From: a virus | Strand: one strand, 5' to 3' | Length of the DNA: 64,000 nt | Virus record (IMG/VR): IMGVR_UViG_3300018080_000112 | Location: 1 to 64,000 of that record | In this document: piece by piece, positions 3,072-56,570 of the stretch | Layout: each line of letters begins with the position of its first letter | How positions within the stretch are numbered: the first letter of the stretch is position 1 | Notes under the pieces: generated by a model | Database searches by the model: none | What the model was told of the DNA's origin: nothing | The model's input: the letters and a program-made list of their open reading frames with translations, nothing else | Program-made: the position numbers and the translations under genes

Positions 3072-4409
3072 TTAGCCGGTTTTCTTGGGCATTTTGATTT
3101 TAAATGGTTGGTCACTGTACTCATACCCGTCATTCTTCTGGAGTGTTTTCAGATAGCGCGGATGGAAACCATCGACCGCTTTTCCATTGAGAGAACCAGA
3201 AACAGGTTTCAACATGAAAGATGGTTTTTGGCGAATCGTGATGCGACCTCGCCAGATTCCCTTCTTCGTTCCTTTCGTTACATCAGCTTTTACAAAGTCA
3301 CCCGTTTTGAACCCCTGACAAGCCTTGTTTCGAGTACGGTGAGCTTTCGCGAACCCGTGACTGTCTGGCTTGATCATCTTCCGGCTACCATGACCCATGC
3401 ACTTGATATACAGCGGCTTGACGCCGTTCGGTCGAAGATTATCAGGTGTGCTCGCGCCAACACAAGCGGCATCTTCCCAATGGGTCTTGCTCAGACCTCG
3501 CTTGATTCGATTGAACTTCGTGCGACCGCCAGACCCGCTTTCGAGAGGTAACCCGGTATCTTTTAGATGATTGAACAGACACCAGCGTGTTGAGTTGATC
3601 GCCGCCGCATCTCGCAAAGGAGCCTTCGCCTGTTTCAAGATCTTTTTGAGAAGGTCTGGTTTCTTTTTCAAGAACACTTTGATGTCCTTGTCACTCTTCC
3701 TCTTGTTACAAGGCGCACAGGAGAGCGTCAGATTCGAGATGCGATTGGTTCCACCCTTTGCCTTCGGTTGAATGTGTTCGACCTGTAAAGGGCGGTCTTC
3801 TTTCCCACAGTAGACACATTTGCGACCCCACTTCTCCAGGAGGTATTCTTTGACCTCGTACCCGTGGAGTTCGCCTTGCTGATATTCGACACCTTCGATC
3901 TCTGGGTTCTCCATCTTCTGGAAATCGAAGCTTACCAGTTCCATGCTGATTGCACCAACCGGAGCATACTTCATCAGCCGTCGTACCCACGTCATCGTGG
4001 TGAGGACCCGGTGCATCAAAGAAGGAGCCAGCCATCCTTTTGGTTTGGGTCTGTGTCGCCAGCGAGCCGGACGATACCTGGTCTTGCGAGCACGGCGATT
4101 CCGACGAACATCGCGGCGCTTTTTCATCTTGTCGGTGATTTGCCAGCCGCGATGATACAGAACAGCCGCCCAAACGATCTCACCGGTTTTGTCATCTAAC
4201 AGAACAATTCCGGTCTGTTTGCTACCGGGGTCAATTTTAATCCGAAGTGCCGGTGGTGTCTTTTCCTTGACTTCCTTTTTCATGATGATAGTAAAGGGGT
4301 AATAGCGCAACACCGCCGCCTTCCCGTCAGCCAGCAACTTCCTTCCTCTGCTTGGATGGCACGGATAAAGCGGGTTGCGCTCTGCATCTACGACAAAAAC
4401 TCGACTCAT
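3072..4409 (-). CDS. iscB: IscB RNA-guided endonuclease (RRXRR/PLMP, split RuvC, HNH)
   Basis: N-terminal VFVVDAERNPLYPCHP (PLMP domain), RuvC-I IDPGSK, Arg-rich bridge helix RRDVRRNRRARKTRYR, RuvC-II MELVSFD, HNH CVYC...EHIQPKAKGG..NL..SCAPCN, RuvC-III THWEDAACVG. Start set at MSRVF after a CAGGAG RBS. Confidence 0.95.
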   Translation of the reverse strand: MSRVFVVDAERNPLYPCHPSRGRKLLADGKAAVLRYYPFTIIMKKEVKEKTPPALRIKIDPGSKQTGIVLLDDKTGEIVWAAVLYHRGWQITDKMKKRRDVRRNRRARKTRYRPARWRHRPKPKGWLAPSLMHRVLTTMTWVRRLMKYAPVGAISMELVSFDFQKMENPEIEGVEYQQGELHGYEVKEYLLEKWGRKCVYCGKEDRPLQVEHIQPKAKGGTNRISNLTLSCAPCNKRKSDKDIKVFLKKKPDLLKKILKQAKAPLRDAAAINSTRWCLFNHLKDTGLPLESGSGGRTKFNRIKRGLSKTHWEDAACVGASTPDNLRPNGVKPLYIKCMGHGSRKMIKPDSHGFAKAHRTRNKACQGFKTGDFVKADVTKGTKKGIWRGRITIRQKPSFMLKPVSGSLNGKAVDGFHPRYLKTLQKNDGYEYSDQPFKIKMPKKTG

Positions 4410-4450
4410 CTCTGTGTTCTCCTGTGTGTATTTTGGACCCCGGTGTTCGC

Positions 4451-4834
4451 TTATTTCTTGTTCCACGGTTTGAATGTTGCGATGAACTCAAGAGAAGGAA
4501 ACGCCCCCTCGAAATGAAAAGCTCGGTCGTCAACAATCAAGACAGCCAGCGGTTTCTCAATGGGGAAAGAGATCTTCTCCAGTGCGGTTGTGGGTAGACC
4601 ATTGTCCAGCAACCATTTTTTCATCGCATCAATACCGCCTTCTTGTGCGTTTCTGGAAGAGAAGATACAGACCTCAAACTGGTCATCCTGACAGAGGTCC
4701 ATCAGCCATCGAATTGCTCCAGGAACCGGCGGGTCAGGAATCACGTCTGCGCCTTGCCACCGGGAGGAATACGAATGCAATACGCCATCAAAATCAACAG
4801 ATACTGTTTTCGCCATTTCTTTGATCTCCTTCAT
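4451..4834 (-). CDS. HAD-superfamily phosphatase-like protein
   Basis: VSVDFDGVLH motif I; IVDDRA motif IV. Confidence 0.75.
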   Translation of the reverse strand: MKEIKEMAKTVSVDFDGVLHSYSSRWQGADVIPDPPVPGAIRWLMDLCQDDQFEVCIFSSRNAQEGGIDAMKKWLLDNGLPTTALEKISFPIEKPLAVLIVDDRAFHFEGAFPSLEFIATFKPWNKK

Positions 4835-43221: not shown

Positions 43222-43851
43222 TTACCAGCGGCTGTATGATTCCCGCCGAATAATTCTTTTCACCTGATCTCGACTCCAGGAGTCTTGCCAGTCACATCGC
43301 CGACCAAACCGGCGGTGTAGCTTCTTCATCTGTTCGTAGTTTCCAGCACAGATATCGTACCAAATGTCATGCCAGACACAATCCCAGCGCCGTCCCTTCT
43401 CCGGTTTCCAGGTCAGCGCATCTTCTTGGCGGATCTCAAGCTTATCTCCGAACCTCTCAAGATAGGTCGGCGCTACCAGGTCAATCACGTCCTGAGACTT
43501 CTCTATAACCAGGACAGAGGTGACCTCTTCTTTACGAGCCACAGCTTGCAAACACATGCCGATTCCCAGACCATGAATCAACACATCTCCCTGAGCTTGC
43601 CAGATAAAATCGAGATGGTCCTTGATCTCCGCCGGAGTATCAGACATCACAACTTCATACAAACCACGTTGCGGTCCACAGAGCCTCGTGTACGTCCCTT
43701 GTGGCACCGGGCGCAAACCGTCTTGTAAAAGAGATGCAAACGCAGTTTCTGGTCCTACATCAAACTTCTCCACACACCAGTTGTTTTTCTTACCGTCCGG
43801 GATATCCACCTGATACTTGTGGAACCATCGTTCTTTCTTCTTTTGTGTCAT
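43222..43851 (-). CDS. Class I SAM-dependent methyltransferase (spermidine-synthase-like)
   Basis: VMSDTPAE, VLIHGLGIG, VIEKS, EDAL, WHDIW. Confidence 0.8.
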   Translation of the reverse strand: MTQKKKERWFHKYQVDIPDGKKNNWCVEKFDVGPETAFASLLQDGLRPVPQGTYTRLCGPQRGLYEVVMSDTPAEIKDHLDFIWQAQGDVLIHGLGIGMCLQAVARKEEVTSVLVIEKSQDVIDLVAPTYLERFGDKLEIRQEDALTWKPEKGRRWDCVWHDIWYDICAGNYEQMKKLHRRFGRRCDWQDSWSRDQVKRIIRRESYSRW

Positions 43852-44010
43852 TGAACTCTCCACAGCATGTTGTTGTTTCTCAGTCACCACAGCCCCCACC
43901 ACAACCACTGCAACTACTACAACCACCGCCGCCTCCTCCGCCCTTTCCCCCGCTGATTGCCCCGGCTAGTCCACAAAGAATTGCAATACCGATAAAAATC
44001 CAAAACCACG

Positions 44011-45330: not shown

Positions 45331-45541
45331 AGTAAATCCCCATGTATATGGGGAATACTCCAACTCGCTGTCAGAGAAGATCTCCTTGACCGGAATATCC
45401 CCATGTATATGGGGAATACAGCCACAACCGTAAAATGGTGCCAAATAAACATGGAATATCCCCATGTATATGGGGAATACGGTCATCAAGGAGACGAGCG
45501 AAATCGAGCTTGCGGAATATCCCCATGTATATGGGGAATAC
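45331..45541 (-). CRISPR. CRISPR array 1: 4 repeats GTATTCCCCATATACATGGGGATATTCC and 3 spacers of 33 nt
   Basis: Repeats at 45331 (degenerate terminal), 45392, 45453, 45514; period 61; type I-E-like palindromic repeat. Confidence 0.95.
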
Positions 45542-45687
45542 TCTTCTTCTGTTCACCACGCTGTTTCGTATTCCTTTACACATGGATTTTACTGCTTCAC
45601 AGGCTATTGCCGTTAACGGTCTTACATAAGCCTCCACAGTCAGAACCGTCATATTCAGCCGGTTATAGAACTTAATACTCATCTTCT
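45542..45687 (-). ncRNA. TnpB reRNA-derived tracr-like RNA, copy 1
   Basis: AACCG-GCTGAATATGA-CGGTT..CTGTGGAGGCTTATGTAAGACC..GCCTGTGAAGCAG resembles IS605 tnpB right-end RNA. It is followed by the anti-repeat CCATGTGTAAAGGAATAC (45568-45585). Confidence 0.8.
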
Positions 45688-46835
45688 AAAACAGTGACGC
45701 CTTTTTGTTTTAAGATAGACGCCGCTTCTTTCCTTATGTTGATTGCTGCATTGATGTCGCGGTCATGTTTTACACGACAACAAGGACAGGTCCAGTTTCG
45801 AACAGAAAGAGGGAGTTTGTCTAACACCTCGCCGCAAACATAACAAGTTTTGCTGGAAGGAAAAAAACGATCAATTTTCACAAGGTGACCGCCGGTTCTC
45901 TGCATCCGCGTCTCAATTCTAGTTCCAAAAGCGCCCCAACTGGCGTCTGCAATCGCCTTTGACAATTTTCTGTTCTTTTGCATGTTCTTTACTTGCAAGG
46001 TTTCCAATCCCACAGCTTGTACGTCTTTCAATGTTGCTGCAATCATCTGGTGTTGATATGTCTCTCGCTTATTTGCAACCTGTGCTTCTCTCTTTGCGAC
46101 AACAATACGAGCCTTTTCTTGGTTTTTTGACCCCTTCTTCTTTCTGGAGTATTTGCGCTTCTTTCGCCGTAAATTATCTTGCGCTTTCTTCAAGAACTTA
46201 GGATTGTCAACCTTCTCTCCCTCAGACGTAATGAACAAGTGAGTCAAACCAAGGTCAAGACCCACAACATCATCAACTTCCGTTAATTTTTTCGGATACT
46301 TCAAACCATCATCAATCAACAGAGACATGTAATACTTAGCTGTAGAAGCTCTTTTTAGTGTACATGTCTTTATCTTTGCGCCGTCTGGAATATTGCGATA
46401 AACATTTGCCTTTACCCATCCGATCTTTGGAATCCAGACCCGTTTATAATCATCTGATACACGAACACCACAAGGATATCCTGCAGACTGACAATGGTTA
46501 CTTTTTTTCTTGAATTTTGGAAAATTGGCGCGTCCTTCAAAGAAGTTAACAAACGCACGATGGAGATTCATAACAGCCTGATTCATCACATCACGCGGCG
46601 CTTTTCGTAGCCACGGATTCTTTTTAATCAAGTCATTCAACCGCCGCATCATGCTATGTGCGTCTACTTTGACCCGCAAACGAATTTTTTCACCCGTGAA
46701 AGGAGATTCTTTATAGATCATCTTTCGCCATGCCAGCATATTATTAAATACCCAGCGTGACACATCAAAATGGTCCTGGAATTTCAATTTTTGTTCCTCT
46801 GTTGGTTTCAGTGGAACTTTGATTCCATACATCAT
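45672..46835 (-). CDS. tnpB: TnpB (IS200/IS605 OrfB) RNA-guided nuclease, CRISPR-associated
   Basis: HTH_OrfB-like N-terminus, FPKFKKK, RuvC triad GLDLGL / GLETL / HDRDINAAINI, and Zn ribbon CYVCG..CPCC. Start MMYG follows GGAGGAG. No tnpA nearby. Confidence 0.95.
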   Translation of the reverse strand: MMYGIKVPLKPTEEQKLKFQDHFDVSRWVFNNMLAWRKMIYKESPFTGEKIRLRVKVDAHSMMRRLNDLIKKNPWLRKAPRDVMNQAVMNLHRAFVNFFEGRANFPKFKKKSNHCQSAGYPCGVRVSDDYKRVWIPKIGWVKANVYRNIPDGAKIKTCTLKRASTAKYYMSLLIDDGLKYPKKLTEVDDVVGLDLGLTHLFITSEGEKVDNPKFLKKAQDNLRRKKRKYSRKKKGSKNQEKARIVVAKREAQVANKRETYQHQMIAATLKDVQAVGLETLQVKNMQKNRKLSKAIADASWGAFGTRIETRMQRTGGHLVKIDRFFPSSKTCYVCGEVLDKLPLSVRNWTCPCCRVKHDRDINAAINIRKEAASILKQKGVTVLEDEY

Positions 46836-46873
46836 AATCTTCGATCTCCTCCGGTTACAAAAGCACATAAAAC

Positions 46874-47084
46874 CTTATATCCCCATGTATATGGGGAATA
46901 CCTCAACCCTTCATCATCTGGGTCAAAGAGTAGGGGAATATCCCCGTGTATATGGGGAATACTCGCCGATTGGCCTGTGTGGTGAAGTCAAGTCGGGAAT
47001 ATCCCCGCGTATATGGGGAATACTTCCTGGTCCACTTTTTGTTCCTCTCGCTGGTCGGAATATCCCCGCGTATATGGGGAATAC
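46874..47084 (-). CRISPR. CRISPR array 2: 4 repeats GTATTCCCCATATAC(GC/AC/AT)GGGGATATTCC and 3 spacers of 33 nt
   Basis: Repeats at 46874 (degenerate), 46935, 46996, 47057. Confidence 0.95.
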
Positions 47085-47230
47085 TCTTCTTCTGTTCACC
47101 ACGCTGTTTCGTATTCCTTTACACACGGATTTTACTGCTTCACAGGCTATTGCCGTTAACGGTCTTATATAAGCCTCCACAGTCAGAACCGTCATATTCA
47201 GCCGGTTATAGAACTTAATACTCATCTTCT
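47085..47230 (-). ncRNA. TnpB reRNA-derived tracr-like RNA, copy 2
   Basis: Direct repeat of 45542-45687 with 2 substitutions; anti-repeat CCGTGTGTAAAGGAATAC. Confidence 0.8.
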
Positions 47231-47938
47231 TAAACGACCACACCAGGTGCAATACTGTTGACCATACTCACCGGGCGCTCGACTCTTGACCCAACTGTGA
47301 AATCGTCCTGGAACAGGATGGTTCGAACACACCTCGTTATCACAAGGGAAAAAATCATCCACTTTTTCAATTCTTTCCTTCCAGGTCCCATCTGGCTGGA
47401 GTTCCTTGAACACACGCTTTCCTGGCTTGCCTTTAGGTTGTTCAATAGATGCCACCACAGCATCCACAATCTCCGCGTCTTCCATAGGTTCCGTATTCTC
47501 AGCCAGACCAGAAAACGGGTCCGTGTCTCTCGACAAACCGCCGGGTCGGAAATCAAGAGGCATCTGCACCTCTGGCGGCTCGCGGTCTCCAAACAACTCT
47601 CGAATAGGAGCCAGGACCTCGTTAATGTGTGGGCGCACCGCATCTTCCGCTTCACGTAGCACTTGACGCGCCATATCTGCAACTTTCAGGTCCTTGTCTC
47701 CCGGCGGAAACTCACCGCGCCGAGAGAGGCGCTTATAAGCCGCAACAATAGGTTCATCACCGGAAGGGTCTTCTGGTACTTCCCACAACGACAAAGGTCT
47801 CTTAGGAGACTCTGGCGGCTCAATTTTGACCTGTTTCGGTCGTATGAAACGCAGATCAAACTCATCTTTGCCTGTAGAGATCTCATTCATCTCCTTCACC
47901 AGGTCTTCAATCAAAGAACCACTTCTGTTCCGACTCAT
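47222..47938 (-). CDS. Hypothetical protein with a C-terminal Cys/His motif
   Basis: ORF track; its stop codon lies inside the duplicated segment. Confidence 0.6.
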   Translation of the reverse strand: MSRNRSGSLIEDLVKEMNEISTGKDEFDLRFIRPKQVKIEPPESPKRPLSLWEVPEDPSGDEPIVAAYKRLSRRGEFPPGDKDLKVADMARQVLREAEDAVRPHINEVLAPIRELFGDREPPEVQMPLDFRPGGLSRDTDPFSGLAENTEPMEDAEIVDAVVASIEQPKGKPGKRVFKELQPDGTWKERIEKVDDFFPCDNEVCSNHPVPGRFHSWVKSRAPGEYGQQYCTWCGRLRR

Positions 47939-55388: not shown

Positions 55389-56570
55389 TCATCCATCTTG
55401 TGCCTCTTTATCTTCCGCAAAGAGGTCTTCCACAGGACAGTCAAACAAAGCAACGAGTGCCTTCTTATGTTTGTCCGCGACTTTACGAGATAATCCGCGT
55501 TCGATTATCGAAAGTTGTCTTGTGGAAATGCCTGTGTGAAAAGTAACTTCGTCCAAAGACATACCGGTTTCATTTCGAATCTTCCGCAGCATCGGGATAA
55601 TGATCTTCGGCAAGCCTTCCTTTCTCGGTATGGTCGGTTTATTCATTTTGTTCTCCTTCCTTGATTTCTTTTTTACAGATTTCTTTTTATGAGATTCTTC
55701 AATCCCGCTTCCTAATCCCCACCTTTGACGATTATCCGGCTCTTCCCACAAACCACCAGCCCCAGGATGAGCCAAAGAAGAAGATGCAACATCACAAGAG
55801 ACACACAAAAAGACCTCTTTGTTGCTGTTCCAAATCAAATGGTCGTCTTGCTCATCCTCCCCACAATACCAACATTTGAAAATTCGACCTCGCGGCTCTC
55901 CATCTTCCTTTGTCATCGGTCGCTTATATGTTTCAACCGCTGCGTCATTCATAATTGTCAAATCACTTACCTGGTCATCCAGCGAACAAAACAATGACTC
56001 GTCTGATACAAAGGGCTTTAAATATTTTGATCGTGATGGATGACGAATCTTGCGTAATGCTCTCGCTCCGACCTGATTGACTCTTCCAGCACCAACACCA
56101 AGAGACTCACCAATCTCTCGCTCCGTTTTTCCAGCAATAAAATAACTTCTTAGAATAAACGCCTCTTTCGGCGACAATGTATCCAATACTTTCTCGATTT
56201 GACTACGTAACTCCAATTTATCAAAAACCTGGTCTGGCGAACTCAACAAGCGCTCCTGGTGCCCCGTTAACATCGGAACTATCTCATCCTTGTTCAGCTT
56301 CGAGCGAATCACGTTCTTCTTTATATCCATCACAGCATCTGGAAATAGTTCCTTCAGAGATACGTGATAGAAATCAGCCAAAGCAACCGCTGCAACACGC
56401 CACACCCCGCGCTTAGTAACCGGAGAAACCTTCAAAAGTTCTAGTTCCGAATAAGACGCCACTGAAACACCCAGAAGACAAGACAACTCTGGTATTGTCA
56501 AACCTAACTTCGTCCGTCTCTCCTTCAGCAAATTACTCCGAATACGGATCTCAACTTCAAGCTCTTTCAT
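55389..56570 (-). CDS. HTH + sigma70 region-4 + XRE-HTH protein (C-terminal HTH may start separately at 55646)
   Basis: LDTLSPKEAFILRSYF..TEREIGESLGVGAGRVNQVGARALRKIRHPSRSKYLK is RpoD region-4-like; XRE-type HTH motifs at both ends. Confidence 0.75.
   Translation of the reverse strand: MKELEVEIRIRSNLLKERRTKLGLTIPELSCLLGVSVASYSELELLKVSPVTKRGVWRVAAVALADFYHVSLKELFPDAVMDIKKNVIRSKLNKDEIVPMLTGHQERLLSSPDQVFDKLELRSQIEKVLDTLSPKEAFILRSYFIAGKTEREIGESLGVGAGRVNQVGARALRKIRHPSRSKYLKPFVSDESLFCSLDDQVSDLTIMNDAAVETYKRPMTKEDGEPRGRIFKCWYCGEDEQDDHLIWNSNKEVFLCVSCDVASSSLAHPGAGGLWEEPDNRQRWGLGSGIEESHKKKSVKKKSRKENKMNKPTIPRKEGLPKIIIPMLRKIRNETGMSLDEVTFHTGISTRQLSIIERGLSRKVADKHKKALVALFDCPVEDLFAEDKEAQDG

Follow-up and report, generated by a model that had tools for sequence, protein, structure and literature searches.

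A tnpB locus with omegaRNA-like scaffolds and short CRISPR-like arrays in the genome of a large phage

Organization of the locus and its TnpB protein

The window analysed here comprises the first 64 kb (64,000 nucleotides, nt) of the IMG/VR virus record IMGVR_UViG_3300018080_000112, which has a total length of 143,941 bp and a completeness estimated at 89% by CheckV. The locus of interest contains a gene for TnpB, two copies of a scaffold resembling the TnpB-associated omegaRNA (right-end element RNA, reRNA) and two short arrays in the format of clustered regularly interspaced short palindromic repeats (CRISPR). All of these parts lie on the minus strand and are transcribed in the order scaffold 2, linker, array 2, tnpB, scaffold 1, linker, array 1. 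A sequence-only reading of the same DNA had placed a TnpB gene, a scaffold and repeats between positions 45331 and 47230, and each of them was recovered there in minus orientation. The features are listed below, the scaffolds being compared to trans-activating CRISPR RNA (tracrRNA).

47111..47235, minus strand: scaffold copy 2, omegaRNA-derived and tracr-like; the anti-repeat is its last 18 nt (47128 to 47111) and the 6-mer of the pseudoknot loop lies at 47199 to 47194
47085..47110, minus strand: 26-nt linker of copy 2, between anti-repeat 2 and repeat 1, with the same sequence as the copy-1 linker
46874..47084, minus strand: array 2, four 28-nt repeats starting at 47084, 47023, 46962 and 46901 (each extending to the start minus 27) and three 33-nt spacers
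45672..46835, minus strand: tnpB, 387 amino acids (aa), with intact RuvC D-E-D triad and zinc finger and a ribosome-binding site upstream
45568..45692, minus strand: scaffold copy 1, about 125 nt, beginning about 20 nt ahead of the tnpB stop codon; 18-nt anti-repeat at 45585 to 45568
45664-45660 / 45648-45644, minus strand: stem 1 of scaffold 1, whose 11-nt loop (45659-45649) contains the pseudoknot 6-mer GAAUAT (45656 to 45651)
45640-45636 / 45595-45591, minus strand: stem 2 of scaffold 1
45542..45567, minus strand: 26-nt linker of copy 1, of which the copy-2 linker is the sole other copy in the phage
45331..45541, minus strand: array 1, with three unique 33-nt spacers between four 28-nt repeats, the last of them degenerate and terminator-like

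A segment of 180 nt, made up of scaffold, linker and repeat 1, is duplicated, the second copy (47235 to 47056) being 97% identical to the first. The arrangement of scaffold, linker and array is also identical on an independently assembled ENA contig (L009). The start of the duplicated module coincides almost exactly with the start of the omegaRNA model described below. A 238-aa open reading frame (ORF) without Pfam or PHROG match (47222-47938, minus strand) terminates four codons inside scaffold 2. A single copy of tnpB was found in the whole phage record.

Neither the Y1 transposase gene tnpA nor cas1 or cas2 was found upon searching the whole 144-kb record, which extends to the entire record an absence already remarked for the window by the sequence-only reading. 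The module does not reside in a recognizable transposon: the Y1 transposase is missing, array 2 ends a mere 38 nt before the tnpB start codon and an array follows the omegaRNA-like scaffold.

The 387-aa protein is a plain, intact IS605-type TnpB. It matches the Pfam families HTH_OrfB_IS605, OrfB_IS605 and Cas12f1-like_TNB, and scores 281 bits against the NCBIfam guided_TnpB model, whose cut-off is 100. The alignment with ISDra2 TnpB runs from end to end and is free of insertions (expect value, E, 1e-48). The RuvC residues D/E/D, intact as the earlier reading had supposed, line up with D191/E278/D361 of ISDra2 TnpB and are invariant in the alignment of relatives, and the CxxC...CxxC zinc finger is in place. 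The AlphaFold model displays a predicted local distance difference test score (pLDDT) of 86, and its top fold matches are the TnpB proteins of ISFba1 (8iaz) and ISDra2 (8h1j), with template modelling (TM) scores of 0.76-0.80 over both lengths. The next fold matches are LaTranC, Fanzor2 and Cas12f, with lower target coverage.

The closest relative retrieved among 5.8 billion proteins is 47-48% identical to the phage TnpB, and in 400 Gammaproteobacteria searched the relatives reach just 35-40% identity. A search of IMG/VR for close relatives by peptide patterns returned none, and comparison of the locus with phages by blastn gave no match. In a FastTree phylogeny of 127 relatives, the phage protein has a branch of 0.91 against a median of 0.15 and is nested in a well-supported clade whose other members are IS605 TnpBs lacking arrays; one of them is encoded next to a Y1 transposase. 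With so long a branch and at most 48% identity to any known TnpB, the protein lends no support to the recent origin suggested by the sequence-only reading. The independence of the lineage, suggested at the same time, fared better, as the sole array-adjacent relatives that were found belong to another clade.

These two relatives (L046:893-1148 and L057:30-213; about 37% identity) are encoded directly behind arrays with 38-39-nt repeats and a period of 71-73. Their omegaRNA is intact, with its own terminal hairpin, and displays no clear anti-repeat. They may be similar to clade 9 of the transposon-CRISPR intermediates (TranC, discussed below) or may be insertion sequences (IS) beside arrays. Their intact omegaRNA, the missing anti-repeat and the different clade led to their rejection as kin of the phage system.

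The scaffold RNA and its pairing with the repeats

An alignment of 24 relatives, from which the phage sequence was left out, was submitted to RNAalifold and used to build a covariance model (R1). Two strongly covarying helices emerged, stem 1 and a long-range stem 2. Model R1 matches scaffold 1 at 45687-45547 (40.2 bits, E 8e-10) and scaffold 2 at 47230-47090 (37 bits, E 7e-9), and these are its only matches in the whole 144-kb record. The scaffold is, by this measure, a true omegaRNA homologue, because a model built from relatives and free of the query matches the two scaffolds and nothing else. The sequence-only reading had described an reRNA-like scaffold directly behind tnpB, and it is at the 3' end of this gene that the stronger match lies. 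Stems 1 and 2 are present in the core of both copies, and one pair of the phage stem 2 is a compensatory A-U where the relatives have C-G. The phage locus also has the conserved blocks that the relatives share at the 3' ends of their tnpB genes, and nhmmer gave weak but positionally consistent matches at these ends. The omegaRNA core of the relatives overlaps the final 20-30 codons of tnpB; in the phage, unlike in the relatives, the frame stops earlier and the RNA sits behind it. An Rfam search of the locus matched no family.

In the relatives, the omegaRNA closes with a terminal hairpin (stem 4). The site of its 5' arm is occupied in the phage by the anti-repeat, the final 18 nt of the scaffold, which pairs with repeat positions 1-7 and 11-19. 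This duplex comprises 16 pairs, one of them G-U, around a 2x3 internal loop, which bears out the complementarity between this left arm and the 5' portion of the repeat noted in the sequence-only reading. Its energy is -19.9 kcal/mol, compared to a mean of -13.0 (standard deviation 2.6) with shuffled repeats. In ISDra2, stem 4 connects the tracr-like half and the half resembling CRISPR RNA (crRNA) (PMC10097598).

The second contact involves the loop of stem 1. Its GAAUAT is exactly complementary to repeat positions 22-27, as the same reading had proposed for the 3' end of the repeat, and the probability of finding the complement of a given 6-mer in an 11-nt loop is, by simple arithmetic, about 0.15%. 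If the repeat is taken as 28 nt long, the register of this 6-base pseudoknot is -8 to -3, as in the relatives and in ISDra2, where the guide-adjacent bases -5 to -3 pair with the stem-1 loop (PMC10097598). In 30 relatives the loop pairs with the tail from position -3, and the pairing covaries between clades: the sets observed are GAAC:GUUC, GAAU:AUUC, GAAG:CUUC, GACA:UGUC, GGCUG:CAGUC and GGCAG:CUGUC. None of 5000 tail shuffles reached the observed loop:tail score; relatedness of the sequences inflates this test, yet at least six distinct pair sets are present. An unrestricted pseudoknot test gave no discrimination, and the loop-anchored test was used in its place. The pairing and its register thus support the notion that the repeat would provide both the 3' arm of the terminal stem and the pseudoknot strand.

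A compensatory change links the anti-repeat to the repeats. The two scaffold copies differ by two substitutions, one of which is an A->G in the anti-repeat. By this change anti-repeat 2 regains a pair that the T->C in repeats 1-3 of array 2 would otherwise break. The duplex of scaffold 1 reaches -19.9 kcal/mol with its own repeats and -15.5 with those of array 2, and the duplex of scaffold 2 with its own repeats lies between -20.9 and -21.3 kcal/mol. The changes in the array-2 repeats weaken the internal hairpin of the repeat from -10.5 to -8.6.

In the minimum-free-energy fold of copy 1, covering scaffold, linker and repeat 1, the anti-repeat and the repeat form a hairpin with the 26-nt linker as its loop. 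Since these three parts fold as one RNA hairpin, the first unit would be a natural single guide; later repeat-spacer units, lacking this cis linkage, would need pairing in trans. The division of the RNA into a tracr-like RNA and repeats, as claimed in the sequence-only reading, is upheld at the level of sequence by the anti-repeat, the pseudoknot register and the compensatory change, but the first unit is unsplit and joined in cis. The linker itself was considered as the true guide and rejected: the tail ahead of it has no complement in the stem-1 loop, which argues against such a role.

The anti-repeat:repeat pairing could instead serve regulation, by acting on the processing or termination of the transcript or on the translation of tnpB, or provide an RNA decoy against a host CRISPR system. 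Phage RNAs that mimic repeats and inhibit CRISPR are known, and in the present locus array 2 stops 38 nt short of the tnpB start while the last repeat of array 1 resembles a terminator. Such roles would leave unexplained the exact omegaRNA register of the pseudoknot, the unique spacers of fixed length and the conservation of the omegaRNA core in both copies, and they appear very improbable.

Array growth and the proposed function

Both arrays have an exact period of 61 nt, with a 28-nt repeat, a 33-nt spacer and three spacers each. In each array the last repeat has a degenerate 3' end, and the bases affected are precisely those of the pseudoknot strand. The one closing array 1 (45337-45354, minus strand) folds into a hairpin with a U-rich run behind it, in the manner of an intrinsic terminator that ends the module. 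All six spacers are unrelated to one another, although they stand beside scaffolds with 97% identity, so that the arrays acquired them either after the duplication or independently of it. The repeat variants of array 2 are nested, reading ATGG, ACGG, GCGG and GCGG from distal to proximal: the distal repeat is ancestral, the next carries one change and the two proximal repeats carry two. Two mutations are sufficient if the proximal repeat is copied, and a static array would need five. The unrelated spacers and the nested variants both speak for a turnover of spacers in arrays that grow at the scaffold-proximal end, as read from one genome.

The spacers bear directly on the view that the locus is a decayed, immobile IS605 remnant, in which a fixed guide (the 26-nt linker or spacer 1) would be the only one used and the repeats would be no more than tandem remains of the right end, devoid of any guide role. 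Slippage cannot yield spacers that are unique, exactly 33 nt long and without similarity to one another or to the phage. This view would account for the lack of tnpA and of a recognizable left end, for the identity of the linker in both copies and for the scaffold tail before the linker, which ends in AC as the tails of the relatives do. The stem-1 loop, however, contains nothing complementary to this tail, while it can form six pairs with the repeat tail in the right register; tnpB is intact on its long branch, and the module was duplicated precisely at the scaffold borders. A remnant of this kind is quite unlikely.

A further alternative comes from the repeat format. The repeat has the geometry of the Escherichia coli K-12 type I-E repeat, with 5 nt, a 16-nt hairpin of the form CCCC...GGGG and an 8-nt handle beginning with AUA, at a 61-nt period, and 16 of its 28 bases are identical to the latter. 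Virus-borne mini-arrays without cas genes are known. The arrays could accordingly feed the Cascade and Cas6e of the host, while TnpB would make use of no more than the first unit, linked in cis, and the scaffold would serve in addition as a leader. In that case the 'leader' would be an omegaRNA instead of an AT-rich sequence, and the handle departs from that of E. coli at two positions. The changes in array 2 weaken the Cas6e-type hairpin and are nevertheless compensated in the anti-repeat. The ending of the repeat, GGGGA plus the pseudoknot strand, also closes the omegaRNAs of the relatives, so that omegaRNA descent explains much of the type I-E likeness. Finally, the repeat frame was found in no array of 185,579 species (one GTDB genome each), of Joint Genome Institute (JGI) metagenomes or of IMG/VR; the single genome match is isolated and without an array. 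A service to host Cascade is thus unlikely.

The locus is probably a CRISPR-like module by which a large phage directs its TnpB to targets, a reading to which the homology of protein and scaffold, the two complementarities and the compensatory change all point. Its operation can be envisaged as follows. A transcript in operon sense would hold two omegaRNA-derived scaffolds, each followed by a short array. After processing, the scaffold would act as a tracrRNA: the ancestral omegaRNA's terminal stem would be re-formed between its 3' anti-repeat and the two-thirds of the repeat on the 5' side, and the stem-1 loop would pair with the last repeat bases, restoring the guide-adjacent pseudoknot. Assembly with TnpB into a ribonucleoprotein (RNP) would thereby position the 33-nt spacer as the guide, and matching DNA would be cut beside a transposon-adjacent motif (TAM). 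In each array, the leading repeat-spacer unit would serve as a natural single guide in cis, and those behind it would work in trans. Spacers would be taken up at the scaffold-proximal end, probably by host enzymes because the phage has none of its own. The likely targets would be the host or rival mobile elements; for a conflict between mobile elements there are precedents in Cas12r (bioRxiv 10.64898/2026.04.20.719267) and CauTranC9 (bioRxiv 10.64898/2026.03.27.714800).

A more specific form of this proposal can be put forward tentatively. TnpB may have become adaptive at the expense of its host, the type I-E Cas1-Cas2 of which would insert spacers at the scaffold-proximal repeat of arrays kept in I-E format. 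The first unit being still an unsplit omegaRNA, the locus would show the earliest stage of splitting, in which an array has grown onto an intact single guide.

Several observations weigh against the targeting module. The duplex energy taken alone is moderately unusual, as 26 of 2000 shuffles (1.3%) were equally good. The repeat folds into a 7-bp hairpin of its own, and an alternative conformer is therefore possible. The anti-repeat pairing is supported by a single compensatory event. No second variant of the locus was found in the collections searched, so that spacer turnover is deduced from one genome. The sequence-only reading had suggested a search with the spacers for protospacers that share a 5' motif. 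The search gave only chance matches of at most 14 nt within the phage itself and no protospacer in cultured phages (E up to 10), in IMG/VR (20-nt seeds, all six spacers) or in plasmids.

The remainder of the record carries genes of phage type, for a methyltransferase, a sigma-factor-like protein, a DNA polymerase and an SbcC-like nuclease (43222-43926, 55389-56570, L105:16312-19797 and L104:11970-13979, all on the minus strand). A 464-aa ORF at 3072-4466 (minus strand) gives a very strong match to the PHROG 'HNH endonuclease' (474 bits). The Pfam families Terminase_6C and HK97-capsid were sought in the record and not found, and none of the large ORFs at 126-144 kb matches a PHROG.

Comparison with known systems

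The closest parallel is offered by TranC, the transposon-CRISPR intermediates, which are reported to have arisen several times from IS605 and IS607 TnpBs through functional splitting of the right-end RNA (Jin et al., Cell 2025, doi 10.1016/j.cell.2025.09.004, as described in PMC13565253, PMC13639567 and bioRxiv 10.64898/2026.03.27.714800). TranC and the phage locus share a TnpB-lineage effector beside a small CRISPR array without adaptation genes. They also share the division of the right-end RNA, of which one part is tracr-like and the other supplies crRNAs derived from the repeats, a division seen in the phage at the level of sequence. Some TranC members are also TnpB-sized and phage-borne, as is CauTranC9 (bioRxiv 10.64898/2026.03.27.714800). 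The differences lie in the phage repeats, of 28 nt against the 32-38 nt reported for TranC clades 3, 9, 11 and 20, in the two scaffold-plus-array modules flanking the gene and in the first repeat, still joined in cis to its anti-repeat. LaTranC, with 478-575 aa, is a partial match only and is not close to the phage TnpB. The locus is, as judged from these features, TranC-like and of a separate lineage.

Cas12r-CRISPR of the Thermus Lalka phages is likewise built on a phage TnpB-derived nuclease, the activity and targets of which have been demonstrated (bioRxiv 10.64898/2026.04.20.719267). Its authors propose that spacers are loaded by host type I-E Cas1-Cas2, and the arrays grow beside the effector side (same reference). 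The two systems have in common an adjacent short array, type I-E-like repeats of about 29 nt, spacers of 31-33 nt and the lack of adaptation genes. Cas12r, however, has 564 aa and uses a crRNA alone, with no tracrRNA, whereas the 387-aa phage TnpB is accompanied by a full scaffold with anti-repeat, in two copies.

With the TnpBs of ISDra2 and ISFba1 (PDB 8h1j, 8exa, 8iaz; PMC10097598) the phage protein shares size, domains and catalytic residues. The RNA shares the succession of stem 1 with pseudoknot loop, stem 2, terminal stem and a pseudoknot strand reaching upstream from -3, behind which comes the guide. The phage module differs in not being part of a transposon, having neither tnpA nor ends. 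Its RNA has 26 nt in place of the terminal-stem loop, and the 3' arm of this stem returns as the repeat of an array, followed by differing guides.

Cas12f (type V-F) likewise makes two repeat:anti-repeat contacts, a guide-adjacent pseudoknot and a long stem (PMC10097598). Its sequence similarity to the phage TnpB is weak (E 1e-4 to 1e-5). Cas12f proteins are larger and dimeric, and many of their loci contain cas1 and cas2.

The likeness to type I-E arrays, taking E. coli K-12 as reference, is one of format only: a repeat of about 29 nt with a Cas6e-type hairpin, spacers of about 32 nt and the 61-nt period. It contrasts with the absence of the phage repeat from the arrays of GTDB genomes, metagenomes and IMG/VR and with the lack of cas1 and cas2 in the phage. 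Part of this likeness can be inherited, because the omegaRNAs of the relatives also end in a CCCC...GGGG-type hairpin and a pseudoknot strand.

The principle being already published for TranC and Cas12r, the value of the phage locus would reside in a well-resolved additional lineage with an unusually legible RNA rather than in a new concept. It would represent a clear natural example of the transposon-to-CRISPR step described in 2025, with a natural single-guide design and parts directly comparable with those of its transposon relatives. If active, its 387-aa TnpB would rank among the smallest array-guided nucleases, and the locus would provide a clean test bed both for the passage from omegaRNA to tracrRNA plus crRNA and for a possible borrowing of host type I-E adaptation by a phage.

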